A stretch of 64,000 nt of DNA from Enterobacteria phage GiZh. A program made the translations under genes and the position numbers. Shown here piece after piece: positions 1 through 56,175 of the stretch. The stretch lies in the sequence record NC_054903.1. One strand, 5' to 3'. The notes below the pieces were generated by a model that searched no databases, was not told where the DNA came from, and saw only the letters and a program-made list of their open reading frames with translations. Each line of letters begins with the position of its first letter. The stretch's first letter is position 1.

Positions 1-400
1 GATTTAAATTATTCCATACATAATAAATAAAGTATGATAAAGCATCTTCACTCGCAATTATAAATTTATTTCCTTCATTTATTTTCCAGTCATATACTGA
101 ATCGTACGAATAAAAAGATAAAGGATTACCATTATATTGTTCTGCGCTAACATTAATGTATTCGGATTTAGTAAATGCTTCAATTGCTCTAAACGGACTA
201 TTTGGCACAGTTTCAATAATTCCGATCTTTTTAAGTTTTATTTCAACATCTTCTGGAACTGGCATTGAAACGAAATTTTCTACGAGATACATAGGGTTAC
301 AATAACCCTTATCAATCACTACGGCTACAGTAATTGGAACATCTTTAGCAAACGACATGCTATTACTGCTAATATACATTTCAAACAAAATCGCTTCCAT
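1..400 (-). CDS. hypothetical protein, 3' end beyond window edge
   Basis: ATG at 400-398 (minus) with GAGGAAAA RBS; 133 codons open to position 1 ([21 protein letters not shown]...); absent from ORF track because no stop in window. Confidence 0.5.
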
Positions 401-408
401 AATTTTCC

Positions 409-750
409 TCAATCACAAGATGTAGATGAACAACTAGAATCACAAGAACTTCCACATGAATCACCTGCCCATACATGAACAGGAACATTGGTGTCATATG
501 AATCAGAACTAGACTGTGTATTCTGTGCATTAGATGATGTAGTAGGTACTGACCAGCGCCAAGGATTTTTATAATATTCTTGGGCTTCTTCATAAGTCAT
601 AGTAACTGCTTCTACTGTTCCATCTCCCATATAAACATATTCAACTACAGTTAAAGGAAGATAGTCATTTGAAATAGGAACTACACCTTCTCCCGGAGTT
701 GTAGAGAAAAAATCTGTAAAGAAATTTTTAAACCAATTAAAGATAAACAT
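409..750 (-). CDS. hypothetical protein with Ser/Cys-rich C-terminal tail
   Basis: 113-aa ORF, stop abuts next gene start; C-terminus [17 protein letters not shown]. Confidence 0.5.
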
Positions 751-962
751 TACAAAAAGCCTCTTTGAAATTCGACTCTTTGAAATCCACCCCAGTCAGT
801 ATATCGCATTTCAGCATTGAACTCGACTGAACCATCTGCATGCATCATGAATGAATGCGTGACGACATCACAATCCCAGCTTTTCATACCCCATTTATCA
901 GAGATAGCTTTATCAAGAACCTTCTGAAGGTCTTCATTTGGTTTAATCCAACGATTTAACAT
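750..962 (-). CDS. hypothetical protein
   Basis: 70-aa ORF, ATGA-type junction with downstream ORF in same-strand operon. Confidence 0.45.
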   Translation of the reverse strand: MLNRWIKPNEDLQKVLDKAISDKWGMKSWDCDVVTHSFMMHADGSVEFNAEMRYTDWGGFQRVEFQRGFL

Positions 963-1060
963 AGTGTTCTCCTCTATAAGATATTTTTATTATACCACAC
1001 TCATTTTGACATGTAAACCATAAAATGAAAAAAGGAATCCCGAAGGATTCCTTAAATTAT

Positions 1061-1318
1061 TTAACCACCTACACCAGGTGTAGGTGTAACAGTCCAAAGA
1101 CCTTCATTAGCAGTGATCCATTCAGTACGCTGATTTTCTTCATATACTGTAGAATATGCTGCTTTTTCAGAAGGGAATGTCTGATAATGAGCACCAGAAA
1201 TTTTGTGAACATCAGAATAAAGAGGGAAAGCTACAGAAATTTCTTTACCCTGAATTGTACCACCATCAACTGCTTGGTCAAATGTTTTGATATTAACATA
1301 ACCGCGAGTACTAGCCAT
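1061..1318 (-). CDS. soc: small outer capsid protein Soc
   Basis: MASTRGYVNIKTF...ISVAFPLYSDVHKISGAHYQTFPSEKAAYSTVYEENQRTEW matches recalled T4 Soc; ATG verified at 1318-1316. Confidence 0.9.
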   Translation of the reverse strand: MASTRGYVNIKTFDQAVDGGTIQGKEISVAFPLYSDVHKISGAHYQTFPSEKAAYSTVYEENQRTEWITANEGLWTVTPTPGVGG

Positions 1319-1334
1319 GTAATTCTCCTTTTAT

Positions 1335-1544
1335 TTAAATTACATGATTATTTATAATAAATTCTCGCGGAACGTTAAAATACCCGATTTTAGTTAATAT
1401 AACAACATCGCCGTTAATAATTACCGGAGAATAATCTTCTGGAGCATTAAATTTCCAATGGGCTCTAATATTATATCCATCAGAACCAAATGCTCGCGTA
1501 GCTGGTCTCCCAGCTTTTTGCCATGCGTAGAAATCAAATTTCAT
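1335..1544 (-). CDS. hypothetical protein (soc.1 position)
   Basis: 69-aa ORF between soc and gene 56; this interval holds soc.1/soc.2 in T2-type phages (segF in T4). Confidence 0.5.
   Translation of the reverse strand: MKFDFYAWQKAGRPATRAFGSDGYNIRAHWKFNAPEDYSPVIINGDVVILTKIGYFNVPREFIINNHVI
1349..1356 (-). promoter_or_regulatory. T4-type late promoter (TATAAATA on minus strand) upstream of soc
   Basis: plus-strand tatttata about 30 nt upstream of soc ATG; soc is a late gene in T4. Confidence 0.55.
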
Positions 1545-1735
1545 TTTGAATGCTCTATAATTAATTTTAAAGCTTCTTCACTGACAAAAATTTCGTCAGG
1601 ACCTTCTATAACTTCAACCATACGAAGTTGATTAGTTAAGAGCTCACATACGAGCTCCTTGTTATAATCTTTAAATAGCTGGTCAATACGTTTCTTATGG
1701 GCTTTCTTGAGCTGACGCTTATTTAAACGAGCCAT
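1541..1735 (-). CDS. hypothetical protein (soc.2 position)
   Basis: 64-aa ORF, overlapping stop/start junctions with neighbours. Confidence 0.5.
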   Translation of the reverse strand: MARLNKRQLKKAHKKRIDQLFKDYNKELVCELLTNQLRMVEVIEGPDEIFVSEEALKLIIEHSK

Positions 1736-2253
1736 TAATAACCTCGGTCTTGACGAGCGAAGTTTTCAGCATTTTTCAGATAATAAAGTTTAAATATTTC
1801 TTCAGCTGACATTCCAAGAGCAATGAATTTATTCATGAAAAAGTGAAATTGATCAATCAGTTCAAATTTAATTTCAAGCTGATCTTCAGGAGATAAATCT
1901 TGAATTTTCTTGGATTGCATTTCAGAATAACGTTTCTTCCAAGGTTTCCATACAGCAGAAGCTTCTTTTTCGCCATTACTCATACCACCGAGAGAAGTAT
2001 ATAGCTCGCGAGTTTCGTCTGCGATATAATCGTCTTGGTTTCGCAACCAAGCAAGAACTTCTCCCGCAGTTTCAAGTGAATCAGGATGACGATTTGTTTC
2101 TGGTTTATCATTAGCCAAACGAATCTGTAAATGCCGCTGCATGTCAAGCATAACCTGCAGTGGGTCAATATTGTGCATAATATTCTCAGCATATGCACGA
2201 TTTGCTTTATCAACACCTTCGATCAAATGAGCACATTCATTAAAGTAAGCCAT
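1735..2253 (-). CDS. 56: dCTP pyrophosphatase (dCTPase/dUTPase) gp56
   Basis: From internal ATG at 2253-2251 (RBS AAAGGAAA): MAYFNECAHLIEGVD...KNAENFARQDRGY, 172 aa, matches recalled T4 gp56; track N-terminal extension judged artifact. Confidence 0.85.
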   Translation of the reverse strand: MAYFNECAHLIEGVDKANRAYAENIMHNIDPLQVMLDMQRHLQIRLANDKPETNRHPDSLETAGEVLAWLRNQDDYIADETRELYTSLGGMSNGEKEASAVWKPWKKRYSEMQSKKIQDLSPEDQLEIKFELIDQFHFFMNKFIALGMSAEEIFKLYYLKNAENFARQDRGY

Positions 2254-2287
2254 TATTTTTCCTTTCAATTCATGGGTTAGTAGATTA

Positions 2288-2312
2288 ATTATACAATAAA
2301 TATATAAAGCAA
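2288..2312 (-). promoter_or_regulatory. candidate MotA-dependent middle promoter for gene 56
   Basis: minus-strand TTGCTTTA (MotA box) then ~11 nt then TATAAT, about 35 nt upstream of gene 56 ATG. Confidence 0.4.
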
Positions 2313-2324
2313 TAAGGAGGACAT

Positions 2325-2525
2325 ATGGTACAAAAATTAATGGCACTTGTTAATGCCATCAAAGGTAATAAGAAACGTATAGCTTTTACTATTTCTGCTA
2401 TGGTAGGAATTTTACTCTGGAACTTTATTTTATCACCAATTGCAATTGCACATGGTGTTAATATTCCAGTAGTTACTCTTGATACATTTGTAGATTTAGC
2501 ATTTGCTTTAGTTGGGTTAATTTAA
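2325..2525 (+). CDS. hypothetical small hydrophobic protein (opposite strand)
   Basis: ATG 2325 preceded by AAGGAGG at optimal spacing; 66 aa, hydrophobic; only plus-strand ORF with a strong RBS in the early region. Confidence 0.3.
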   Translation: MVQKLMALVNAIKGNKKRIAFTISAMVGILLWNFILSPIAIAHGVNIPVVTLDTFVDLAFALVGLI

Positions 2526-3550
2526 ATCTTAGCATATTTAGATAACCGCATTTTAGCCATCAACCCCTGGGCAATATTATTTTTCATATATTCCATAATT
2601 TGTTCAGGGGTTGCACCTTCCTTTCTAATCATATCATTAACATCTTTTGATTTCCAGGGAGATTTATCCCAAAACATAACCCTTTCTCCTGCATCAACTA
2701 ATTTAGTCATTCGCTTAATAGTGTCAGGATGACGAGGTTCATTATCTAAGACCCACACACGCCTATCTTTAAATGGAACAACTTCTAGGTCTAATTGACC
2801 ACCCGTAATAGCTATACCATTTTCAATAAAAAGTGAATCTATAGGTCCTTCTAAAACATATACATCACCATCTTTAACTCGTTCGACTCCATATATTTTT
2901 GTTGCCTCAGGATAAGCTTTGATGGTGATATATTTTTGAGGAGCATCTTTCTTTAATGCACGTCCTTGAAAAGACTCAGCTTTTCCATTAGCATTATAAA
3001 TTGGAATAACAAGACGAGGCTCAGAAATTTCCTTTTTGTATGTTCCCGGTGCTATGCTATTAACTAATTTAGGCCATTCAGTTGTAAACCAAAGATATTT
3101 CCATTTATCCTTTGGAATACAACGAGCTTTTACATATTTTATAATTGCATGGTCTTCCGCCAGTTTATCTAATCGAACACATGACGGAAGAGATTTAATT
3201 ATTTTCTTCTCAGGTTGTTTAGGAAGTTCTTTAGGTTTTTCTACTGGACGACTTTTACCTTTTTCTTTTCTTATTTCAAAGATATACTCACGATATAAAT
3301 CAGGTTCAAACTCCTTTAAATATATTCCGATTGGTGCATGATAGTTACAGTTATAACAATGAATATTTCCTTCATTATTATCACCATAATACCATCCACG
3401 AGCTTTATTCTGGTCGGTTTTTGAATCTCCACAAACAGGACATCTAAACCGTAATTTAAAAGTTGAACTATTATTTACTTGTGTGAATTTAGGTAAATGA
3501 GCTAATGCACGGTATGCAAACTCATTATCAATCCAAGGTATTGATGACAT
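2522..3550 (-). CDS. 61: DNA primase gp61
   Basis: 342 aa; MSSIPWIDNEFAYRALAHL..., zinc ribbon CPVCG...CYNC, TOPRIM-like VLDNEPRH; ATG verified at 3550-3548. Confidence 0.9.
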   Translation of the reverse strand: MSSIPWIDNEFAYRALAHLPKFTQVNNSSTFKLRFRCPVCGDSKTDQNKARGWYYGDNNEGNIHCYNCNYHAPIGIYLKEFEPDLYREYIFEIRKEKGKSRPVEKPKELPKQPEKKIIKSLPSCVRLDKLAEDHAIIKYVKARCIPKDKWKYLWFTTEWPKLVNSIAPGTYKKEISEPRLVIPIYNANGKAESFQGRALKKDAPQKYITIKAYPEATKIYGVERVKDGDVYVLEGPIDSLFIENGIAITGGQLDLEVVPFKDRRVWVLDNEPRHPDTIKRMTKLVDAGERVMFWDKSPWKSKDVNDMIRKEGATPEQIMEYMKNNIAQGLMAKMRLSKYAKI

Positions 3551-3713
3551 TTTTACTCTTCTTTTTCTTTAGATTCCTCTTTTTTTTAGGAATCTGTTCA
3601 GGACCTTTATTTACTACAGCGCCTGATGTTGTTCCAGTAGAGATATTTTCAGGATTACCACCTGAATCTCCAGCTACCATATCTTCTTTAATAAATTCTT
3701 TATATGTTTTCAT
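3528..3713 (-). CDS. small basic protein with capsid-targeting-like N-terminus
   Basis: ATG 3713-3711 with AGAGGT RBS; N-terminus MKTYKEFIKE; C-terminal KKKRNLKKKKSKN; 23-nt out-of-frame overlap with gene 61 start. Confidence 0.5.
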   Translation of the reverse strand: MKTYKEFIKEDMVAGDSGGNPENISTGTTSGAVVNKGPEQIPKKKRNLKKKKSKNVINTLD

Positions 3714-3714
3714 A

Positions 3715-4071
3715 TTAACCTCTATTCATAAAAGCATTAAAAATTTGGTCATCAATAGATGGAATAGCAACCTTTTCGGCATCATTTAGCAAATCATTAA
3801 TTTCATCAGATAGCATAACACATGTGCCTTTATTTCCTGTAATTGTTACTGCGCAATTACGAACGTTTTCTTTATCAAATTTTAGGTTAATATTTTCGTA
3901 GTGAAAATCCTTTAATGCCGAATATATCTTTAAAATGAAATTGTCTTTTACTACAATAAACCCAACCTCACTATTAAAACGCGGTTCATGGAAACTGTAA
4001 TAAACCTTTTCATCTATAAAATCGTATGAAATTTTTTCCATTTTTAAATATGAAAATTCAGAACTATACAT
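3715..4071 (-). CDS. hypothetical protein (61.1 position)
   Basis: 118 aa; ATG verified; C-terminus SIDDQIFNAFMNRG shared with next gene. Confidence 0.55.
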   Translation of the reverse strand: MYSSEFSYLKMEKISYDFIDEKVYYSFHEPRFNSEVGFIVVKDNFILKIYSALKDFHYENINLKFDKENVRNCAVTITGNKGTCVMLSDEINDLLNDAEKVAIPSIDDQIFNAFMNRG

Positions 4072-4072
4072 A

Positions 4073-4705
4073 TTAACCTTTATTCATAAAAGCATTAAAA
4101 ATTTGATCGTCAATAGAAACTTTTACTTTAGGCTGTTCTTCAAACGGTAATTCATATCCACATATTACAATTTTGTGATCGATACCAAAATACACAGAAG
4201 CAATATTATTAATATTATTTTCAGTGAAATCTAAATCAACATCAATATCTTTTTGACTAACGCTCAAAGGATAATTAATACGAATAATTCGATTATCTTT
4301 AACAAAGATTCCACCGACATACTCTGTGCTGCGTTTAAAGTTTACACGTTTCCTAAATGAAAAATATTCAGGTTCTTTATGCGCTCGACTCATAGGGCTT
4401 AAAGTGTATTCCGAATATGAAATATCAAATCCTACACCTTCAATATGAGCCAAAGTGTCATGATTAAACCAATTATAATCGTATGCCAAATCCATTAAAT
4501 TGTAATATGTGAAAGGCACCGGATTAACATCATATGTTGTACCTTTAAAATCTGCCCAGGCAACGATTTCGTTATCTTTAACAATTACAAAAATTGTGCC
4601 AATAAGATATCCACGGTTATTTTCATCAGGTGTTATATTATAACATTGTGCATCAGGAAATTTACCGTATTTAAACGGTGGATTTTTGTGCATATAATAA
4701 ATCAT
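4073..4705 (-). CDS. hypothetical protein (61.2 position), two internal repeats of a VKDN module
   Basis: 210 aa; ATG verified; GTIFVIVKDNEIV and GGIFVKDNRIIRI modules; C-terminus SIDDQIFNAFMNKG. Confidence 0.55.
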   Translation of the reverse strand: MIYYMHKNPPFKYGKFPDAQCYNITPDENNRGYLIGTIFVIVKDNEIVAWADFKGTTYDVNPVPFTYYNLMDLAYDYNWFNHDTLAHIEGVGFDISYSEYTLSPMSRAHKEPEYFSFRKRVNFKRSTEYVGGIFVKDNRIIRINYPLSVSQKDIDVDLDFTENNINNIASVYFGIDHKIVICGYELPFEEQPKVKVSIDDQIFNAFMNKG

Positions 4706-5060: not shown

Positions 5061-5318
5061 CTATTTTAAAACTTCTGCGTAATCACATGTTACAAACTGT
5101 TTCTCTAGCTTAACGATTTTACGAAAATGCCTTTTACACTGACGAATCTGCCTCTTCGTAGGACGTACAACAAACTTAATAAATTCCACTCGACCAAATG
5201 GAGGACTTTCTTCTGCTGGAATATCTAACACCAATTCCCATGTATCCGCAATAAGCGCTTTGAATTGCGTATTTTTCCTGACGTTATACGGAGTAGGTTT
5301 AAATAAAACAATATGCAT
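5061..5318 (-). CDS. hypothetical protein (61.4 position)
   Basis: 85-aa ORF, ATG verified, 2-nt gap to dmd. Confidence 0.5.
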   Translation of the reverse strand: MHIVLFKPTPYNVRKNTQFKALIADTWELVLDIPAEESPPFGRVEFIKFVVRPTKRQIRQCKRHFRKIVKLEKQFVTCDYAEVLK

Positions 5319-5319
5319 A

Positions 5320-5502
5320 TTATCCTCGGCAATCTACTTCACATACTTTCTTGTCATCAATGAAAGCTTTAACTAATGCTTTATTAACTTCAGCATATTG
5401 AGTAGTAGCCCATTGAACGTCATCTTTCATCATTGTGATTTCTTTAGTAAACATGCTTTCATTCTTAAACCACCCCATAAAAACTACCTTTACCAATTCC
5501 AT
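5320..5502 (-). CDS. dmd: Dmd antitoxin-type protein (discrimination of mRNA degradation)
   Basis: 60 aa MELVKVVFMGWFKNESMFTKEITMMKDDVQWATTQYAEVNKALVKAFIDDKKVCEVDCRG; size and position match T4 Dmd. Confidence 0.8.
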   Translation of the reverse strand: MELVKVVFMGWFKNESMFTKEITMMKDDVQWATTQYAEVNKALVKAFIDDKKVCEVDCRG

Positions 5503-5531
5503 AACAATCTCCTCATTTAACCAACAAGACT

Positions 5532-5561
5532 ACTATACCATAGTCTTGTCAGCTTGTAAAC
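5532..5561 (-). promoter_or_regulatory. T4-type early promoter upstream of dmd
   Basis: minus strand: AT-rich UP, GTTTACA, 17-nt spacer, TATAGT. Confidence 0.5.
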
Positions 5562-6988
5562 TAAAATTTTAATTCATTTGCCAAAGCATCTAACTGAGCT
5601 CGAGCGGATTCGTTTCTTTGATAGCGATTCTGTTCAGCCTGAATCTGCTGTGAACCTGCTACTTCGTTCACTTCAGTTGGAGTAGAATCTTGTTCAATTT
5701 CTACCCATTTTTGATTTCCTTTTTGAACACCCATCAAAAACTTATTCCACTTATTCTTATCACCATATCGTGATTTGATTTGCTTAATAAGTTGTTGTTC
5801 AGCAGCTGCCAACTCCTCGGTTTCAATGACCGCAAGCATAAAATCGGCTGTCGCTGGAAGACCAGCAGATTCTGCGATATCACTCATGTTAACATCAGAA
5901 GAATCCCAAGCTTGTTTACCAACCTGTGCTGCAGTCCAAAGAACAGTTTCGGTTTCAACAGCAAGAGCACGCAATTCCTCTGCAATAGCTTTAACAGTTG
6001 TGTAACTATTTTCTGAATAAACTCTAATGCGGCAAGATTTACAAATACCTAGATAGTCGACAATAATGATTGTTGGAACAAAATTCTTTTTGAGCTTCAA
6101 TTCATTCAAGAGAGACCTGAATGTGTTAGCATCTGCTCCACCAGTAGGGTACTGTTTAACGATTAAACGACCAAGAGTAGATTTCTCACGCCATTTTTCC
6201 ATTTTTCCTTTATACTCAGCGTAAGAAATATGTCCATCATCAATATCGTCAAGAGAAACATCGAGCATGTTAGCATCAATACGTTTAGCACAGACTTCTT
6301 CTGCCATTTCCATGGAAATGTAAAGAACATTATGTCCGAGCTGTAAATAATCTGCTGCCAATGAACACAATCCTAATGACTTACCAACGTTAACGCCAGC
6401 CATTAAAACGTTCAGCGTTCCAGTTTCAGCTCCGCCTTTCGTAATTTTGTTTAGAATTCTGAGTTTAAATGGAACCTTACGAGCTTTATTCATATAAGAT
6501 AGCCAACGTGCTTCGTAGTCATCCATCCAATCATGACCAACGTAGCTATCAAATGAAATTGATAATGCTTGACGCATGATGTCAGGAATAGCACCAACAT
6601 CCGGCATTTTCTTATTTCGTTTTTCCGGAGGAAGCTCAGCATTAGTTTGAATTTCGATTATTTTAGACGTAGCATTAAACATCGCCCTTTGCTGAACATA
6701 TTTTTCTGTTTCTTTTACTAACCAGCTGTGGTCTTCTGGAGAATCGGCTAGTTTTGAAATAAGTGTTTTTACACCAGAATATTCCGTTTCAGTAAATGAA
6801 CTATTTTCTAATGCAACATTTAACGCATTAATAGATGGAACGCTATGATACTCATTAACATGAGATTTAATTAATTTGAATGTATTTTTAGCTGGACCAC
6901 TTTCAAAATATTCTGAATCCATATATGGCCAAACTTTTGAAAAATAAGCTTGATCAAATATGAGATGAGAAAGAATAATTTCTACCAC
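5561..6988 (-). CDS. 41: replicative DNA helicase gp41 (DnaB-like)
   Basis: 475 aa; Walker A GVNVGKS; MVEIILSHLIFDQAYF...; apparent GTG start. Confidence 0.95.
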   Translation of the reverse strand: MVEIILSHLIFDQAYFSKVWPYMDSEYFESGPAKNTFKLIKSHVNEYHSVPSINALNVALENSSFTETEYSGVKTLISKLADSPEDHSWLVKETEKYVQQRAMFNATSKIIEIQTNAELPPEKRNKKMPDVGAIPDIMRQALSISFDSYVGHDWMDDYEARWLSYMNKARKVPFKLRILNKITKGGAETGTLNVLMAGVNVGKSLGLCSLAADYLQLGHNVLYISMEMAEEVCAKRIDANMLDVSLDDIDDGHISYAEYKGKMEKWREKSTLGRLIVKQYPTGGADANTFRSLLNELKLKKNFVPTIIIVDYLGICKSCRIRVYSENSYTTVKAIAEELRALAVETETVLWTAAQVGKQAWDSSDVNMSDIAESAGLPATADFMLAVIETEELAAAEQQLIKQIKSRYGDKNKWNKFLMGVQKGNQKWVEIEQDSTPTEVNEVAGSQQIQAEQNRYQRNESARAQLDALANELKF

Positions 6989-14173: not shown

Positions 14174-14437
14174 TTAAATTAGTACTATTTGTCGGTGAAA
14201 AATTGTCATTCCATCTGCATTAATTGACTTAACGACTGCAGTAAAGTGTTTTTGTTCTGGGTGAATTAATTTTTGAAATTCTACCTGAAATTTTAGTTGA
14301 AGGTTTTCTGGTAAATCGAAAAGTGTTTCTGTTGCAGAAAGATTATATTTTTCTTTAAGAGACGCCATGTATTCTTGTGGAGTTATAGCAGTCATATTAA
14401 TTACCAATCGTATATTTAGGAACGAGTTTCCATTCAT
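14174..14437 (-). CDS. hypothetical protein between regA and 43
   Basis: 87-aa ORF; alternative ATGs at 14395 and 14368; start uncertain; overlaps regA 3' end. Confidence 0.4.
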   Translation of the reverse strand: MNGNSFLNIRLVINMTAITPQEYMASLKEKYNLSATETLFDLPENLQLKFQVEFQKLIHPEQKHFTAVVKSINADGMTIFHRQIVLI

Positions 14438-17029: not shown

Positions 17030-17913
17030 TTCAATTTCCTATTTACATAATAGTTAGACCAGGACCGTACAGCACCCTGATAAGATTCGTCGTTAAACCC
17101 ATTAGCTACTGCAATTTTACGAAATTTATTATAACTTGGTTTTCCGTAAGCATGCCATAAAGATTTTAATTCATCTTCATGTTCAATCCAAGTTCCTCTA
17201 GCTTTAGATTTTCTAAATTTTGATTTGAATTCCGGTAAATTATTTCTAACAGTTGCTTGAATTGAAGCTCTCTGTCTTCTTTCAGCATTATTCCATAATT
17301 CTTTTTGAGATTTAGAAATTTTTGATCTTACACTTTCTGAATTCATTATATCACTAAACTTTTTAGCATAACTACAATCAAGATATTTCAATTTCATCTT
17401 ATTTGAGAGTTTAAGCTTTTTCTCATCGGTCCAGTGATTCTTCATTGAATTAGATATTTTGTATTTTACTTCAGAACTATGTTTGTAACCTTTACGAATA
17501 CCGACATACTCAGGCGTAATTTCAGATTGCGAAAGCTTTACAATTTTTCCAGTTAAAACATTTTTATATGTTCCATATCCTTTAGCACCAATTAAAGTAT
17601 TTTCATCTGCGTATGCTTTATTAAAATATTTTATATTACTCTTTGCTTTAACTTTTAATTGAAAAAATCTCTCCAATTTTCTTGGATCTAATATAGTTTC
17701 AGCTAAAATTTTGACGGTATATTTAGTGGTTTTAATAAGTTCAAAATATTCATCGCTATAACTCGATGACACGCTTCCAGTATAAATCTTTCCAGCTGAA
17801 TCAATTATATTTGTTCCATCGAAAATTGCGTTAATTTTTGAACCTATATAATAACACGGAAAAATATTTTTAGCTTCCCGCTCTGGAAAGCTAATAAGAT
17901 ATACTAAATTCAT
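17026..17913 (-). mobile_element. freestanding GIY-YIG-like homing endonuclease gene (between rpbA and 45)
   Basis: 295 aa; N-terminal VYLISFP-(10)-YYIGSK (GIY-(X10)-YIG pattern); Lys-rich C-terminal half with NUMOD-like repeats; no gene sits here in recalled T4 order. Confidence 0.55.
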
Positions 17914-18299
17914 TTATTAAACTCGGCCACAATTGTTTCCGCAACAATTTGTGCAGCAACAATCAGACGTTCATCTGCATTACCGCAATAATCATCTTCA
18001 AGGCGTTCACCACATGAAGTCATAATAAATTTAGCACCGGCGTTTAGGGATTCTGTAGTATGTTTGCGCATTAGTTCAATCCATTTATTACTTACTTCAC
18101 GATCGATAGCTTCATAATACGCATGACGAGCAGGTGCAGATTTAATTTTGTTCTGAATAACTTCCATTGCGTTATCAGAAAGAGACAAAACCCATGCGCG
18201 ACGAATTTTATTTTGGTTTTGTGGATTTGATTCAGAACGCACGTGTTTTGGCTGAATATCTTTTACATCAACAGTATAATTCACAGTAATTTTAGTCAT
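17910..18299 (-). CDS. rpbA: RNA polymerase-binding protein RpbA
   Basis: 129 aa, position between 46 and 45 as in T4; ATG verified. Confidence 0.75.
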
Positions 18300-21698: not shown

Positions 21699-22299
21699 GG
21701 TGTCTTTTCCATCCTAATTTAGCTGCTTTTGAAACCAGTTCTTTAATTTTTCCTTTTGTCCATTCAGGACCAGGAGGTTCATGACATAACATTTGCTTAA
21801 CTCCGTTATTATACCATTTTTTACCTTTATTATGTGATGAAGCTTTAAATTTATTTGACCTTCCTTTTACATAACCTTCTGGAATATAAGGTAAAAATGC
21901 AGATTTTCCTGTTAATGGATCATGTGAATGTATATTTCCTTTACAATTATGAGAACCATATAATGGATGATTTTTTCCTTTAATATCTCTTCCAAATGAA
22001 CCTTTTGGAGCAGCATATGACATATTAAAGAATAATGGATTTTTAACTGCATCATGCAATCGTTGATAATATAACTCGCATTTAATAGCTTCTTCACGCG
22101 TATCAAATTCAGCTAAAATGCATGAATCAAATAAGTGAGGATTATCTGAAAGCTCTTTATTATAAATTTTCTTATACTTTTTAGATAAAACTGAACCATG
22201 ATATCCAGCTAAATGCCTATCTAAAGACGTAGATCCAATATAAAAAGGAGGAAGTTTATCTCCACTATATATTGTTAAATAAGTTATATATTTTTTCAT
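21676..22299 (-). mobile_element. freestanding GIY-YIG-like homing endonuclease gene (between 47 and a-gt)
   Basis: 207 aa; YLTIYSGDKLPPFYIGSTS, then R/H (DRHLAGYHG), E (REEAIKCE), N (KNPLFFN); basic Gly/Lys-rich C-terminus; ATG verified. Confidence 0.55.
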
Positions 22300-38020: not shown

Positions 38021-39001
38021 TTATTTCAGAAGAGTAACCTCAGCAATTTCTTCCCAACCATTTTTGTCGGTCATAATAAAGTCAGCAAGATAAAGAGCAG
38101 TACGCAGTGAAACATTGCGTAAACGATTAACATTGACTTTCATCCATGATAATGCTTTATAAGTTTCTTCATCAGAAAGACCACGCTTTTGCATCATGTC
38201 GGTTGAAAGAATAACATCTTCAACCCTGACCATAATTTCTTCATTAGTGTGAACACCCAAATCTAAATAAACTGAGCGGGACACTAATGCTTGTAAGTGT
38301 GGAGCAAGTTTAGTACCACGGTCTAATTCGCGGTCAATGTCAACGTTTGTGATAAAAACAATCGTTCCTTTAAATTCAAACTCACGGTCAATGCCTTTTT
38401 CTTCTAAGTAAGAAGACGCAGTGCTCCAGCAGACTTTACGGGTCTCTCCAGTGTCCAGAGCAGCTTTTAGAAGATTAAGAATGTCCATATCAGAGAAAAC
38501 ATCCACATCATCAATCAAAAGGACAGAATTCTCTTCACGATTATTCCAAAGCTGCTCATAAAGACCAATACCAGAGATTTTACCATTAATGCTTTTATAT
38601 TCAATGTATCCAATATCATTTGCTTTATTTAAAGCTTTATCTAAAGAATACGTTTTACCAATACCTGCTGCGCCGGAGATAATTAATGAACGAATATTTC
38701 CATTAATAATACCATTCGTCATCATTCCCATAACATTAAATCTTTTATTAATGCGGGTTTTCATATCTTCATATGATTCTTTAACTTCTTCAACTTTTAC
38801 ACCATCATATGAAATATCTGATTTGTAAACCCAAACACCGCGACGTTTACCGTCAATTTCAACAAAAACTTTACCATCTCCTTGTGCATCTACCGGAGCA
38901 TTATCTGGGAACCATTCGCCTAAGAGCTCAAAAGTTCCAGAGATTTCTTTACCGAAGTAGATACCCTTATTGATAGTTACAGTTTTCATTTTATTCTCCA
39001 A
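38021..39001 (-). CDS. P-loop NTPase (AAA-like)
   Basis: 326 aa; Walker A GAAGIGKT, Walker B VLLIDDVD. Confidence 0.6.
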   Translation of the reverse strand: MENKMKTVTINKGIYFGKEISGTFELLGEWFPDNAPVDAQGDGKVFVEIDGKRRGVWVYKSDISYDGVKVEEVKESYEDMKTRINKRFNVMGMMTNGIINGNIRSLIISGAAGIGKTYSLDKALNKANDIGYIEYKSINGKISGIGLYEQLWNNREENSVLLIDDVDVFSDMDILNLLKAALDTGETRKVCWSTASSYLEEKGIDREFEFKGTIVFITNVDIDRELDRGTKLAPHLQALVSRSVYLDLGVHTNEEIMVRVEDVILSTDMMQKRGLSDEETYKALSWMKVNVNRLRNVSLRTALYLADFIMTDKNGWEEIAEVTLLK

Positions 39002-39023
39002 ATCCGTATCAGTTGATAGTTGT

Positions 39024-39054
39024 ATAGTACCATAAAGCTTTATGCTTGTAAACC
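39024..39054 (-). promoter_or_regulatory. T4-type early promoter
   Basis: minus strand GTTTACA, 17 nt, TACTAT, AT-rich UP; conserved block copy. Confidence 0.55.
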
Positions 39055-39086
39055 GTTTTGTGAAAAATTTTTGAAATAAAAAAAAA

Positions 39087-39104
39087 GGGAGCCCGAAGGC
39101 TCCC
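39087..39104 (-). terminator. intrinsic terminator
   Basis: minus strand GGGAGCC-UUCG-GGCUCCC followed by nine U. Confidence 0.7.
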
Positions 39105-39106
39105 TA

Positions 39107-40120
39107 TCATTTATAATAACTTCGGTGGTTTTCAAGATAGACCTTCTCAAGGAAGTCATCCCAGAAACTCATGTCTACTGTTTTAGGCATACCGTTCTTA
39201 GAAGCTTCAGTAGATGCTGCTTCTACTTGATCGACCACATCTTCCAAAAACTCTTGAACTGTTTTAAATGGATGTTTACCCAACTTCACGTCGAGAATAA
39301 ATGGAGCATCTTGAAGTGGATAGACTAAGTCACCAGTTTTGTAAATTTCCAATAGTTGGAGTCCACCACGACAAGCATGACTCAAAGCTTTCCAGTCAAT
39401 ACCTTCATTGGCTTCGGCCTTACGAGCACGTTCACCATATTCAGCATCTAATTTGTTCAGTGACTGCTTAAGCTCAATAAGAGAAAGCGTTGTCTGATAT
39501 TTACGACCCAACACAGTGTAGAACGTTTGTGGGCCTGTTTTCTCATGATTATGGAACACCCATTCACAGAATTCGTTTTCTGGAAGACGATGCTTAATAT
39601 CTTCAACTTTAGTGCGACGCTGCTTAATAGAACCATCTTCTTGGTAATCAATCCACTGCTCAGGGATTTGATTAACTACTTTCAATACATCACGTAATGC
39701 AGCCAAACGAGAACCTTTGACACCGTATTTAGAAGCTTGCTTGCGGACATATCCTAAATATGATTTCATGTTAGTCGTATAAAAACGAGAACGGTTGTCT
39801 TGAATAAACTTCCACACATCAGGCAAATCAGATTTAACCACTAGTTCAGGTGGAGTGTGAAGCATATCTAATGCTACGGTTTCACCATCTGCTGCTAATT
39901 TAAAGAAATATTTAAGACTGTATAGTTCATGGTCAATATCATCTTTAGTGTTTTTAGATGATGTGTTGTTAGTGTTTTTACTCATATGCTCTTTAACATT
40001 TCCGATAAGAATATCGCGAGCAGGAGGAACAAAGATTTCTTTAAAATCTACATCAGATTCTGGAGTAGAAGTTCCATAAAGATGACTACCAAAATAGCTT
40101 TTCATTACTGTTTTCATCAT
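39107..40120 (-). CDS. hypothetical protein
   Basis: 337-aa ORF; stop directly followed by strong terminator. Confidence 0.55.
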   Translation of the reverse strand: MMKTVMKSYFGSHLYGTSTPESDVDFKEIFVPPARDILIGNVKEHMSKNTNNTSSKNTKDDIDHELYSLKYFFKLAADGETVALDMLHTPPELVVKSDLPDVWKFIQDNRSRFYTTNMKSYLGYVRKQASKYGVKGSRLAALRDVLKVVNQIPEQWIDYQEDGSIKQRRTKVEDIKHRLPENEFCEWVFHNHEKTGPQTFYTVLGRKYQTTLSLIELKQSLNKLDAEYGERARKAEANEGIDWKALSHACRGGLQLLEIYKTGDLVYPLQDAPFILDVKLGKHPFKTVQEFLEDVVDQVEAASTEASKNGMPKTVDMSFWDDFLEKVYLENHRSYYK

Positions 40121-40578
40121 TCAGCCTTATATTCAATAACAGGACATACTTTAGCTTTACGCGCTTTTAAAAATTCGACGATAACCGATTTCTTGGGTTG
40201 AATAGGAGGTAAACCTTTATACGCCCTATCAATATTTTCTACGTGTAAAGCATAATCCTTTTTCCATTTATAATCTTTATATTTTTCACGCAAATGTGCA
40301 GGAATAACAAATGAACCGATAATAAGTAAAACAACCAAAAGCGCAAGTATAAATGCCGATGGAAGAAGAGTCCATAAACTACCGAAAATAAGCCAACGTT
40401 GTAGGCTTTCTGCACAAATAATTGTTAGCCCTACGAGTATAGCACATCCAAAAATAGAAACGAAAAATGTAGGAATGGCAATAGACCAAAAATATGCGCA
40501 TAGTGTCTTAGGTCGTTGCCATTCATCGTTAAACAATTTGAATAATTTATAATGCCAAGAGTTTTCATTAATAATCAT
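40117..40578 (-). CDS. membrane protein
   Basis: 153 aa, two or three predicted TM helices. Confidence 0.5.
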   Translation of the reverse strand: MIINENSWHYKLFKLFNDEWQRPKTLCAYFWSIAIPTFFVSIFGCAILVGLTIICAESLQRWLIFGSLWTLLPSAFILALLVVLLIIGSFVIPAHLREKYKDYKWKKDYALHVENIDRAYKGLPPIQPKKSVIVEFLKARKAKVCPVIEYKAE

Positions 40579-40580
40579 AA

Positions 40581-41102
40581 TTATCCTTTCATTGAAGGTG
40601 TAACAGTTGTTAAATACTTAATCATAGCCTCAGCTTCTGATTTTGATAGTGAAATTTCTTCACCGTTTTGGCGAATAGAAACAAAATCTGGATGACGATC
40701 ACCACCAGCTTTTAAAACACACATATAAGTATCAGCTTCGCCTTCAATATTTGAAATGATTGAAGCAGTTCCACACGAATGTGGTTTTTGATAAATCAAT
40801 ACAGCTTTTCTTCCACCATTTGACTGTTCATAGGCTTTTAATACATCAAACAAATCAGTTCTTTTATCAATAGCTAAAATGTTATTTTCATCTTCAATGT
40901 TAAATCCTTCGGATACTTCATAAAGCGTTACCCATAAATCACCAATGTCAATAACAGCATTTACTTTTCCACGGCTTTCAAGAGTATGACAAATTTTCTT
41001 GATTTCGTCATAACTCATTTTAATAATATCATCTCCTTGAATAAGAAAGATGTCATTTTTAAATTCAACACGAATTAAACCACTTTCACTTGAAATAAAC
41101 AT
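40581..41102 (-). CDS. hypothetical protein (paralog of 41109-41480)
   Basis: 173 aa; C-terminus KSEAEAMIKYLTTVTPSMKG parallels the neighbour's KDEAIALKTYLDSVIPTMISK. Confidence 0.5.
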   Translation of the reverse strand: MFISSESGLIRVEFKNDIFLIQGDDIIKMSYDEIKKICHTLESRGKVNAVIDIGDLWVTLYEVSEGFNIEDENNILAIDKRTDLFDVLKAYEQSNGGRKAVLIYQKPHSCGTASIISNIEGEADTYMCVLKAGGDRHPDFVSIRQNGEEISLSKSEAEAMIKYLTTVTPSMKG

Positions 41103-41108
41103 ATTTCC

Positions 41109-41480
41109 TCACTTTGAAATCATAGTTGGAATGACAGAATCAAGATAAGTCTTTAGTGCAATAGCTTCGTCTTTGGTAAATGTGACAATATGTGCTCGAG
41201 AATCATCATTTTGGCGAACAAGTACGACATCGCCATCTTCATAAGAAGTCTTGACATCCAAAGTCGTAGTATAGTTTGCAGCTACTGGATTAATAATGTT
41301 AGCACCGCGATCTTTAGCCCATTGAAGTTTAGCCTTTTCGGGTGTTTCGGCTGTTTCAGATTCTAAGAATTCTTTCACCTTGGCAACGAATGTTGCCCAA
41401 TTGTTGATAGAAAGACACATAAATTCAGTTTCAAATATTACCGCCGTAAAGGCCACGATAAAAACGAACTTGGAGGTCAC
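41109..41480 (-). CDS. hypothetical protein (paralog of 40581-41102)
   Basis: 123 aa; shared C-terminal motif with neighbour. Confidence 0.5.
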   Translation of the reverse strand: MTSKFVFIVAFTAVIFETEFMCLSINNWATFVAKVKEFLESETAETPEKAKLQWAKDRGANIINPVAANYTTTLDVKTSYEDGDVVLVRQNDDSRAHIVTFTKDEAIALKTYLDSVIPTMISK

Positions 41481-41664
41481 CTGTAATATTAGTTACACCG
41501 GTAACTCCTGAGGGAGCATAAGATAAAATCGCAGCCAGTTCCATAGGAAGAATAGTAATACTATCGTCTTCCTGCGTCAGAACGTATACATTACCGCGTT
41601 TTTCGATAACTAGGTCACCGAACAAATCAGTTGTTTCAATTACAGCTTTCATATTATTTACCAA
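41431..41664 (-). CDS. hypothetical protein
   Basis: 77-aa ORF overlapping neighbours; start uncertain. Confidence 0.4.
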   Translation of the reverse strand: MVNNMKAVIETTDLFGDLVIEKRGNVYVLTQEDDSITILPMELAAILSYAPSGVTGVTNITGDLQVRFYRGLYGGNI

Positions 41665-41839
41665 TTAAAGTTTCAATATAAGAATCAAGATTTACTTTAG
41701 CTTCTTCCATAAGAGTTTTGTATTTAATCTTGTTAGCATGTCCGGAGAAAGCTGATTCATCAATAATTGTTGATGTATGAACAGCTTTACTATACGTCTC
41801 AATTAATTCTCTTAATTTAAAAGCCTGCTCACTTGTCAT
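41654..41839 (-). CDS. hypothetical protein
   Basis: 61-aa ORF, first gene downstream of early promoter at 41972-42002. Confidence 0.45.
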   Translation of the reverse strand: MTSEQAFKLRELIETYSKAVHTSTIIDESAFSGHANKIKYKTLMEEAKVNLDSYIETLIGK

Positions 41840-41971
41840 TACATACTCCTCTGAATCATATCAATAATGTTGTTTACCAAATTATAAGTAAACATTGGGT
41901 AATTATATTGAATCATCACATACACAACAAACAAAACTTTCATTCTCTTCTCCTTGGCAGTTGACAAGATT

Positions 41972-42002
41972 ACTATACCATAACCTTGCCAACTTGTAAA
42001 CC
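41972..42002 (-). promoter_or_regulatory. T4-type early promoter
   Basis: minus strand GTTTACA, 17 nt, TATAGT. Confidence 0.5.
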
Positions 42003-42003
42003 A

Positions 42004-42177
42004 TTAAATGACGTTTTCAATAAAATTCTGAAGCTTTGTGTGAGCATCAACCATGATTTTCATTTCTTCTTTGGCGAAAGCTGTACCTCTTTCCCGAGCA
42101 GAATACTCATAGTCAGAAACTGCATTAGCATATTCTTCAATTAGCTTCATTAAAAACATCTGCTTTTCAGTTTTCAT
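42004..42177 (-). CDS. small hypothetical protein (57 aa, below ORF-track cutoff)
   Basis: ATG 42177-42175, MKTEKQMFLMKLIEEYANAVSDYEYSARERG..., stop at 42004; ATGA-type junction with upstream ORF. Confidence 0.4.
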   Translation of the reverse strand: MKTEKQMFLMKLIEEYANAVSDYEYSARERGTAFAKEEMKIMVDAHTKLQNFIENVI

Positions 42178-42361
42178 TATTCCACCTAATCATTTCAAGA
42201 TATTGAACTAATTTAGCTTTAGATTTGTCCAAATCCTTTTTAGCTGCTTCTATACCGTCGTATGAATATCCTTCACAATGCTCAACTGCTAATTGGTATG
42301 AATCTATTTCAATATCATGCGCTAATTTAATGATTTTTTCAAACTGTTCGCGTGTTAGCAT
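42167..42361 (-). CDS. hypothetical protein
   Basis: 64-aa ORF. Confidence 0.45.
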   Translation of the reverse strand: MLTREQFEKIIKLAHDIEIDSYQLAVEHCEGYSYDGIEAAKKDLDKSKAKLVQYLEMIRWNNEN

Positions 42362-42363
42362 AA

Positions 42364-42603
42364 TTAAACTCTCGTATTATGATCGATAATTTCATCAAGA
42401 AACATATCTAACGCTTCTAAAGCATTATCAACTTTAGCTTCAAGTTCATCAATACCTTTATTTGCAATGCCTGACGAAAACCAAGCAAAGTCACTAAGTT
42501 CCTCGTCTGCTTTACGAATTAAAGCTACCAATTCTTTAATCTTATCCGCTTGCTCTATACTAATCATTATTCCACCACATATGACAGAGAGAATATTGCA
42601 CAC
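42364..42603 (-). CDS. hypothetical protein
   Basis: 79-aa acidic helical ORF. Confidence 0.45.
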
Positions 42604-42800
42604 GCCATGTGAGTTGCAACTTCATCACACATATTATAACGTTTCTTAAGAAATTCTACAAGTTCTTCACTAGTAACTTCATCCATGTCGACGAAAAAAT
42701 CACCATTAATGATGACGTAGATATTTCCTTCTTGATTGAGTGCTTCAATTTTCATGATGTTCTCCTCTTTATCCGATAGTTGTATAGTATCACAGCTCAA
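42567..42800 (-). CDS. hypothetical protein
   Basis: 77-aa ORF downstream of early promoter. Confidence 0.4.
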
Positions 42801-42814: not shown

Positions 42815-42829
42815 GGTAAAATGAAAAAA

Positions 42830-42845
42830 GTCTCCCGAAGGAGAC
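42830..42845 (-). terminator. intrinsic terminator
   Basis: minus strand GUCUCC-UUCG-GGAGAC followed by UUUUUU. Confidence 0.65.
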
Positions 42846-42850
42846 TAATG

Positions 42851-55344: not shown

Positions 55345-55420
55345 TGGTCGAGGCAGTAGGGATCGAACCTACGACCTAGGACTTAGAAGGTCCTTGCTCT
55401 TCCTTCTGAGCTATGCCTCG
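55345..55420 (-). tRNA. tRNA-Arg (anticodon UCU)
   Basis: cloverleaf folded by hand: acceptor CGAGGCA/TGCCTCG, anticodon loop CTTCTAA, T-arm GGTTCGATCC, 3' ACCA. Confidence 0.85.
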
Positions 55421-55424
55421 GATT

Positions 55425-55499
55425 TGGCGGACGTGATAGGATTCGAACCTATAACCAATCGCTTAACAGGCGATCGCTCTGCCATTGAGCTACACATCC
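55425..55499 (-). tRNA. tRNA-Asn (anticodon GUU)
   Basis: acceptor GGATGTG/CACGTCC, anticodon loop CTGTTAA, T-arm GGTTCGAATCC, 3' GCCA. Confidence 0.85.
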
Positions 55500-55503
55500 A
55501 AAT

Positions 55504-55590
55504 TGGTGGGGAGTGATGGAGTCGAACCACCCGAGTCGCAATGACAATGGATTTACAGTCCACACCGCTACCTCTACGGGATAACTCCCC
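55504..55590 (-). tRNA. tRNA-Tyr (anticodon GUA)
   Basis: acceptor GGGGAGT/ACTCCCC, anticodon loop CTGTAAA, long variable arm, T-arm GGTTCGACTCC, 3' ACCA. Confidence 0.85.
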
Positions 55591-55602
55591 TAATTCATAA
55601 TT

Positions 55603-55677
55603 TGGTGGCCCTGGGTGGAATTGAACCACCATCTGGCGATTATGAGTCGCTTGCTTGAACCTTCCAGCTACAGGGCC
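55603..55677 (-). tRNA. tRNA with anticodon CAU (Ile2 lysidine-type or Met)
   Basis: acceptor GGCCCTG/CAGGGCC, anticodon loop CTCATAA, T-arm GGTTCAATTCC, 3' ACCA. Confidence 0.8.
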
Positions 55678-55678
55678 T

Positions 55679-55754
55679 TGGTGCTGATTGACGGAATCGA
55701 ACCGCCGACCTTCTCATTACAAGTGAGTTGCTCTACCTACTGAGCTAAATCAGC
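55679..55754 (-). tRNA. tRNA-Thr (anticodon UGU)
   Basis: acceptor GCTGATT/AATCAGC, anticodon loop CTTGTAA, T-arm GGTTCGATTCC, 3' ACCA. Confidence 0.85.
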
Positions 55755-55759
55755 AAAAC

Positions 55760-55849
55760 TGGCGGAGGCGATAGGATTTGAACCTATGAGTCGCCGGAGC
55801 GACTGCCGGTTTTCAAGACCGGTGCATTAAACCACTCTGCCACGCCTCC
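55760..55849 (-). tRNA. tRNA-Ser (anticodon UGA)
   Basis: acceptor GGAGGCG/CGCCTCC, anticodon loop CTTGAAA, long variable arm, T-arm GGTTCAAATCC, 3' GCCA. Confidence 0.85.
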
Positions 55850-55851
55850 AG

Positions 55852-55925
55852 TCTCCATACAAGGATTTGAACCTTGGACCTCCTGATCCCAAATCAGGCG
55901 CTCTACCAAACTGAGCTACACGGAG
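55852..55925 (-). tRNA. tRNA-Pro (anticodon UGG)
   Basis: anticodon loop TTTGGGA, T-arm GGTTCAAATCC; CCA not encoded. Confidence 0.8.
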
Positions 55926-55935
55926 TAAATTAAAT

Positions 55936-56009
<74 letters not shown>

Positions 56010-56013
56010 AAAT

Positions 56014-56101
56014 TTGGTGCGAGAAGTGGGACTCGAACCCACAAGGAAATCATTCCGCAGCATTTTAAGTGCTGTACCTTTACCAATTTGACCATTCTCG
56101 C
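56014..56101 (-). tRNA. tRNA-Leu (anticodon UAA)
   Basis: acceptor GCGAGAA/TTCTCGC, anticodon loop CTTAAAA, long variable arm, T-arm GGTTCGAGTCC, 3' ACCA. Confidence 0.85.
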
Positions 56102-56102
56102 G

Positions 56103-56175
56103 CTGGGAATAAAGGACTCGAACCTTTGCATCCTGGAATCAAAATCCAGTGCCTTACCAACTTGGCTAATTCCCA
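56103..56175 (-). tRNA. tRNA-Gln (anticodon UUG)
   Basis: acceptor TGGGAAT/ATTCCCA, anticodon loop TTTTGAT, T-arm GGTTCGAGTCC; CCA not encoded. Confidence 0.85.

Follow-up and report, generated by a model that had tools for sequence, protein, structure and literature searches.

The window analysed here (i.e., the whole stretch of 64,000 nucleotides from Enterobacteria phage GiZh, NC_054903.1) very probably carries a tandem pair of two-domain genes of the y05I/MobD.1 family, the upstream member of which is a mobD.1 ortholog broken by a single extra base. The two genes are adjacent on the minus strand, separated by a 6-nt spacer, and homologous along their whole length. The initial annotation, which had listed a 173-aa and a 123-aa protein as neighbouring paralogs that arose by tandem duplication and then diverged in their N-terminal parts, was therefore right about the duplication. 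Its divergent N-terminal part could not be upheld, since the N-domain of the second copy sits upstream of the 123-aa ORF in another frame.

The intact paralog and the split mobD.1-type gene

The downstream gene (40581–41102, minus strand) encodes an intact 173-aa y05I-family paralog of the RB32ORF097c type. Its ATG start codon (41102–41100) is preceded by a GAGGA sequence that shares bases with the stop codon of the gene upstream. Both y05I domains are present on this one polypeptide, with Pfam placing the N-domain at approximately 40818–41099 (PF24449, profile positions 2–98, E = 4e-33, 114.4 bits vs. a gathering cut-off of 24.9) and the C-domain at approximately 40590–40799 (PF24448, E = 1.6e-23, 83.3 bits vs. 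a gathering cut-off of 27). The protein, which ends in ...SKSEAEAMIKYLTTVTPSMKG, matches phrog_1502 over its full length (2.7e-66), and this copy was found in 446 phage records, approximately 430 of them at 91–99% identity.

The 123-aa ORF (41109–41480, minus strand, GTG start) ends in ...TKDEAIALKTYLDSVIPTMISK and matches phrog_1502 as well. Its C-terminal likeness to the 173-aa protein is real, with both sequences matching PF24448 above the gathering score (residues 51–120 of the 123-aa ORF; E = 9.4e-17, 61.6 bits vs. a cut-off of 27). A pairwise alignment, proposed earlier as a check on this likeness, proved significant beyond the short terminal motif: BLASTP aligned residues 42–120 with residues 92–171 of the 173-aa protein (30% identity over 84 aa, E = 2e-5). 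As for the motif itself, the shared pattern (S/D)EAxA(M/L)xxYLxxVxPxM stood, but the lysine originally written into it did not, this residue being out of register between the two proteins (IKYL vs. KTYL).

Most of the N-domain of the second copy was recognized in a 77-aa ORF (PF24449, profile positions 2–72 of 99, 70.5 bits) that overlaps the 123-aa ORF by 50 nt in the other frame, while profile positions 72–99 were matched by residues 16–43 of the 123-aa ORF itself (25.7 bits vs. a cut-off of 24.9). Because the N-domain match is divided between two ORFs in different frames, both ORFs can be attributed to one gene cut by a frameshift. The ORF listing extends the 5′ piece of this gene to a TTG at 41664 (77 aa, 41431–41664), and relatives start the mobD.1-type gene at the ATG of the 5′ piece (MKAV...). 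Counted from this ATG, the 5′ piece (41431–41652, minus strand) consists of 73 codons (MKAV...GGNI) plus a TGA stop codon and contains N-domain positions 2–72 (PF24449, E = 2e-19). The 3′ piece (41109–41432, minus strand) corresponds to the 123-aa ORF from residue 17 on and comprises the remainder of the N-domain followed by the complete C-domain.

DNA alignment with the corresponding genes of phages Kelasse, Jbel, and Kha5h revealed exactly one gap, where the coding strand reads AATATTTGAA in the window vs. AATATTGAA in the others. The mobD.1-type gene of the window (41109–41652, minus strand) measures 544 nt vs. 543 nt (encoding 180 aa) in relatives, and the 1-nt insertion was located at 41433–41435, where the plus strand reads AAA (TTT on the coding strand) vs. 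AA in all relatives. The extra base creates the stop codon TGA at 41433–41431 on the coding strand, and its removal yields a 180-aa gene with both y05I domains on one polypeptide. All five reference copies of the mobD.1-type gene translate without a stop, and the intact relative in Jbel matches both PF24449 (E = 1.6e-31, 109.3 bits) and PF24448 (E = 2.8e-17). Moreover, the 173-aa protein of the window recurs unchanged in three contigs, all of which have an intact 180-aa gene upstream of it. In two of these, the independent metagenome contigs L013 (SRR2145391) and L015 (ERZ27274690), this upstream gene matches that of the window at 543 of 543 bases, the extra T being the sole difference.

Residues 1–16 of the 123-aa ORF (MTSKFVFIVAFTAVIF; 41433–41480, minus strand), which are read from the GTG, are a spurious leader: they share their DNA with the 77-aa ORF, in a different frame, and correspond to the codons for ...GDLQVRFYRGLYGGNI read out of frame. 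No Shine–Dalgarno sequence was seen before this GTG, and tblastn retrieved no homolog covering residues 1–16, all matches starting at residue 17 or later. Since a one-base frameshift is present and no phage record shares this leader, residues 1–16 are better explained as out-of-frame sequence than as a diverged N-terminus. The frameshift was shared by none of the 661 records with a match among 50,697 phage records (a collection from which the genome of the window is absent), the best tblastn match covering residues 17–123 only, and no called gene on record gives the 73-aa N-fragment. Exact-pattern scans of IMG/VR for the frameshifted and the intact junction returned nothing for either, and are uninformative because the allele is absent there. 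Judged from these sequence comparisons, the 123-aa ORF is the 3′ fragment of a frameshifted gene and corresponds to no natural protein.

Mutation, sequencing error, or bypass of the stop

That the window encodes two complete proteins sharing only a C-terminal module, with N-terminal parts that diverged or were replaced after tandem duplication, is extremely improbable. The C-terminal similarity is real and stand-alone C-domain proteins exist in other phages, as this reading would have it, but the missing N-domain lies immediately upstream in the other frame, the 180-aa gene is the same as in relatives once one base is removed, and residues 1–16 of the 123-aa ORF lack a homolog. Under the preferred reading, i.e., a tandem pair with a mobD.1 ortholog interrupted by one base, the extra base either arose by mutation very recently or was introduced in base calling. 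The latter sub-case, in which a homopolymer was misread or misassembled and two intact tandem paralogs are hidden by it, falls only a little short of an even chance: a single base is changed in a short A-run, the change was found in no other record, and every other copy of the allele is intact, including the two with no other base difference. However, the run is merely 2 to 3 bases long, and broken copies of the dispensable mobD.1 occur in other phage records (e.g., the truncated mobD.1 of IME537); fragmentary y05I family members are common among database proteins. Moreover, over approximately 50 kb compared with Kha5h, the indel at 41433 is the only isolated 1-nt indel in an annotated Kha5h CDS or an intact Kha5h ORF, the other indels being either isolated at positions where Kha5h has no annotated CDS, or grouped in diverged stretches, where they compensate one another. 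Since no other isolated coding frameshift was present over this distance, the GiZh sequence is not generally error-prone.

A genuine frameshift that is bypassed, either by a +1 slip at AUU-UGA or by re-initiation at the in-frame ATG (M21; 41420–41418) located 10 nt past the new stop, was considered very unlikely. The coding strand at the insertion reads GGCGGU-AAU-AUU-UGA-A, a layout loosely resembling that of the +1 frameshift site of prfB (AGGGGG-UAU-CUU-UGA-C), in that an in-frame UGA directly follows an NUU codon and a G-rich stretch (GGCGGU, one mismatch from GGAGGU) lies 3 nt upstream. Nevertheless, the site has AUU instead of CUU, and AUU-to-UUU re-pairing is poorer than CUU-to-UUU re-pairing; the Shine–Dalgarno-like element is imperfect; and the site is conserved in no relative, all of which read straight through without the extra base. 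Because it is absent from every relative, the AUU-UGA site does not qualify as an evolved recoding signal, and a programmed frameshift as an evolved feature was rejected on this ground; the likeness to prfB appears to be a chance by-product of the insertion. The re-initiation route would give a C-domain protein resembling the natural 74-aa forms, and C-domain-only homologs do exist, but the internal ATG is not preceded by a Shine–Dalgarno sequence and the N-domain would be cut mid-domain. There is a small chance that a real insertion represents a natural domain-fission variant that still yields a C-domain product (by re-initiation or by low-level prfB-like +1 slippage). If true, such a variant would mimic the stand-alone 74-aa C-domain genes and show that the C-domain works alone.

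Should the base that interrupts the mobD.1 ortholog be real, MobD.1 would be lost or reduced to fragments. The phage should be able to tolerate such a null allele, given that T4 can dispense with the block containing mobD.1 and that an intact paralog lies next door. Indeed, the T4 block from nrdC.11 to mobD.3 was lost in a viable genome-reduced phage (PMC9825161).

Relatives and history of the pair

The repaired upstream gene has the same two-domain architecture as T4 MobD.1 (Y05I_BPT4; PF24449, T4_y05I_N, and PF24448, T4_y05I_C), and lies at the same position and on the same strand, i.e., 3′ of the small mobD.2–mobD.5 genes and 5′ of nrdC.11. The T4 gene lacks the frameshift of the window, and since the two proteins are only 47% identical, the mobD.1 of the window can be regarded as a divergent allele, which approximately 72 phage records carry at an identity of at least 90%. 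T4 also differs in having mobD.1 alone, the 173-aa and 153-aa genes of the window being replaced by mobD, which encodes an HNH homing endonuclease (PMC2988022). RB32ORF097c (95% identical to the 173-aa protein) and gp124 of Kha5h ('similar to mobD.1', 'MobD.1-1'; 98.8% identical) occupy the same position as the 173-aa gene and are the same gene. Stand-alone C-domain proteins (phrog_7763; e.g., the 74-aa gp119 of Yersinia phage fHe-Yen9-01) have the same PF24448 domain and conserved helix, and gp119 is situated at the same locus, where it is followed by a membrane protein and an NrdC.11-type nucleotidyltransferase. These stand-alone genes are natural and have a start of their own, whereas the 123-aa ORF is a frameshift by-product that retains the last third of the N-domain.

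In its intact form, the product of the upstream gene can be aligned with the 173-aa protein across residues 12–177 of the former and 8–171 of the latter (29% identity, 173 columns, E = 2e-9). Because the paralogs align over their whole length, both domains must have been duplicated and both retained. The duplication is old, with a weak DNA remnant of it discernible at 543-nt spacing, and the paralogy was already known, RB32ORF097c having been annotated as 'similar to mobD.1'. MobD.1 is the more conservative of the two, as outgroup proteins (Gaprivervirus DK-13, P0018, and P0020) reach higher scores with it than with the 173-aa copy; mobD.1 was found in approximately 660 phage records vs. 446 with the 173-aa copy.

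The two copies also appear to recombine, since a natural hybrid gene replaces the pair in three Logan contigs (L010, at 3001–3540, L011, and L012), with no other y05I gene present at the locus. In the hybrid protein (P0011), 106 of the first 115 residues match T4-type MobD.1 and 48 of the last 49 residues match the 173-aa paralog, which looks like the product of an unequal recombination that collapsed the pair. Upstream of the hybrid gene lies an 88-aa 'Phage_tudor' gene, which the window lacks.

The y05I family, its locus, and its annotation

The y05I family is tiny, with 23 representatives at 50% identity among 1.84 billion proteins, and every member with a traceable source stems from a phage. 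Members are of two types, i.e., two-domain proteins or C-domain-only proteins of approximately 75 aa, and the family alignment revealed the terminal helix of PF24448 (TKxEAxALVxYLNSVIPTM) as the most conserved element. While an AF2 model based on a 5-sequence alignment was discarded (pLDDT of 43), a model based on 20 sequences reached a pLDDT of 85.4. In this latter model, the N-domain is composed of seven strands and two helices, and the C-domain of five strands followed by the conserved helix at its end. Since hhalign paired N-domain residues 10–42 (IFLIQGDDIIKMSYDEIKKICHTL) with the C-domain core (FVSIRQNGEEISLSKSEAEAMIKYL; probability of 81%, E = 1.2e-5), the C-terminal motif probably occurs twice per protein, each domain probably containing the same beta-hairpin–helix unit. 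HMMER cross-matches between the N- and C-domains were not significant alone, and the internal-repeat signal is moderate. MobD.5 (42567–42755) resembles one beta-hairpin–helix unit, and its membership of the family was unsupported by Pfam and by custom HMMs. The related Pfam family DUF7189 matched 7 of 20 members weakly.

Sequence searches of the PDB, with a single protein and with a profile, returned nothing below E = 0.49, and Foldseek of the AF2 model against the PDB returned nothing below E = 0.02, with no significant fold match to any DNA-binding domain. The LytTR (probability of 0.44), sliding-clamp (≤0.3), and cupin-like matches among the Foldseek results had low TM-scores and were not trusted. 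Against BFVD, Foldseek found family members, unannotated entries, and uncharacterised Bacillus-phage proteins, and no annotated neighbour outside the family. Going by the predicted structure, the y05I family may constitute a new fold made of a repeated beta-hairpin–helix unit, without a relative in the PDB.

Pfam names the family 'putative transcription factor', and a search of the accessible literature retrieved no functional study of MobD.1, y05I, PF24448, or RB32ORF097c. Full-length members are acidic (net charge of –3 to –22, pI of 4.1–5.8), and this acidity, the dispensable locus, and the lack of a solved structural relative fit poorly with the Pfam label. The y05I proteins would instead be acidic accessory proteins, probably early ones, that bind a host or phage protein; we tentatively consider protein binding likelier than a role as a classical DNA-binding transcription factor, although with low confidence.

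The window belongs to a T4-like coliphage (Tequatrovirus), and the 4 kb around the pair shares 99.4% identity with Enterobacteria phage Kha5h; 423 T4-like phage records contain at least 80% of this 4-kb region. Every gene of the region is on the minus strand. According to the annotation of Kha5h, RB32, and T4, the order is rI.-1, a terminator-like hairpin, mobD.5, the small mobD.2–mobD.4 genes, mobD.1, the 173-aa gene, a gene for a 153-aa membrane protein, nrdC.11 (nucleotidyltransferase), and a second terminator-like hairpin. The hairpin upstream of mobD.5 (42829–42846, minus strand) marks the start of a transcription unit, and the one after nrdC.11 (39086–39105, minus strand), whose position matches a terminator annotated in Kha5h, closes it, so that the unit contains mobD.5, four DUF7438 genes, mobD.1, its paralog, the membrane-protein gene, and nrdC.11. 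Transcription of this unit probably starts at the promoter of mobD.5, which in T4 gave rise to a transcript that was seen when RNA from early infection was analysed (PMC1702504). Neither NCBIfam nor PADLOC matched the paralog pair or its neighbours, and Rfam gave no match in the region.

The y05I pair thus lies 3′ of the small DUF7438 genes and 5′ of the genes for the membrane protein and the NrdC.11 nucleotidyltransferase, and the same locus order was found in Tegunavirus and Gaprivervirus. The succession of a y05I gene, a small membrane-protein gene, and the NrdC.11 nucleotidyltransferase gene (Pfam RlaP) is kept in Tequatrovirus, Tegunavirus, and Gaprivervirus, and this set, which had no PADLOC or NCBIfam match, may form a functional module. 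In Tequatrovirus, a gene for the AAA-type NTPase NrdC.10 (weak nSTAND and AAA matches) also follows, past the terminator; the region concerned is 38021–40578 of the window (minus strand).

Directly upstream of the y05I pair lies a second, larger tandem gene family, i.e., four paralogs of a helical protein of approximately 60 aa (Pfam DUF7438, PF24219) within 41654–42567 on the minus strand (41654–41839, 42004–42177, 42167–42361, and 42364–42567). One of these is called 'helicase loader' in RefSeq via phrog_4859. Further away, ten tRNA genes are clustered at 55348–56175 (minus strand), corresponding to the T4-type tRNA region. At the left end of the window (1–4533), identity to Kha5h falls to 89–92%, and no megablast match to Kha5h was found at 1072–1771, 14181–14396, 17041–17915, and 21699–22292; by these alignments, the GiZh genome is seen to be mosaic relative to its closest record.

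The paralog pair was already annotated in reference genomes and both domains were already in Pfam, and the biological weight of the broken gene is small. Its lesson is one of annotation, in that an indel of one base gave a two-domain gene the appearance of a short one with a novel, hydrophobic, and signal-peptide-like N-terminus. Similar fragments of y05I-family proteins have been deposited as separate proteins for T2, ECO4, and IME537. In the T2 record (NC_054931.1; L005, 1440–2981), mobD.1, its paralog, and the membrane-protein gene are each split into two or three ORFs by several frameshifts, which means either that a dispensable block has truly decayed or that this part of the record is of low quality.

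Several labels in related records also deserve attention. In Kha5h (NC_054905.1, approximately 79295–79837; L001, approximately 5110–5652), the intact mobD.1 ORF has no CDS annotated and its site carries only a 'cos site' misc_feature, which is implausible in a T4-like phage and amounts to an annotation gap. RefSeq calls the small MobD.4 and MobD.5 (42364–42755 in the window) by names such as 'molybdopterin-guanine dinucleotide biosynthesis protein MobD', apparently because two gene names coincide; Pfam gave no family above threshold for the MobD.5-type ORF, and the MobD.4-type ORF of the window matches DUF7438 alone. Doubtful labels in the annotation of T4 and Kha5h further include 'thioredoxin' on nrdC.7/nrdC.9-type genes and 'starvation-inducible transcriptional regulator' on rI.-1, the rI.-1-type ORF of the window matching DUF5856 alone.
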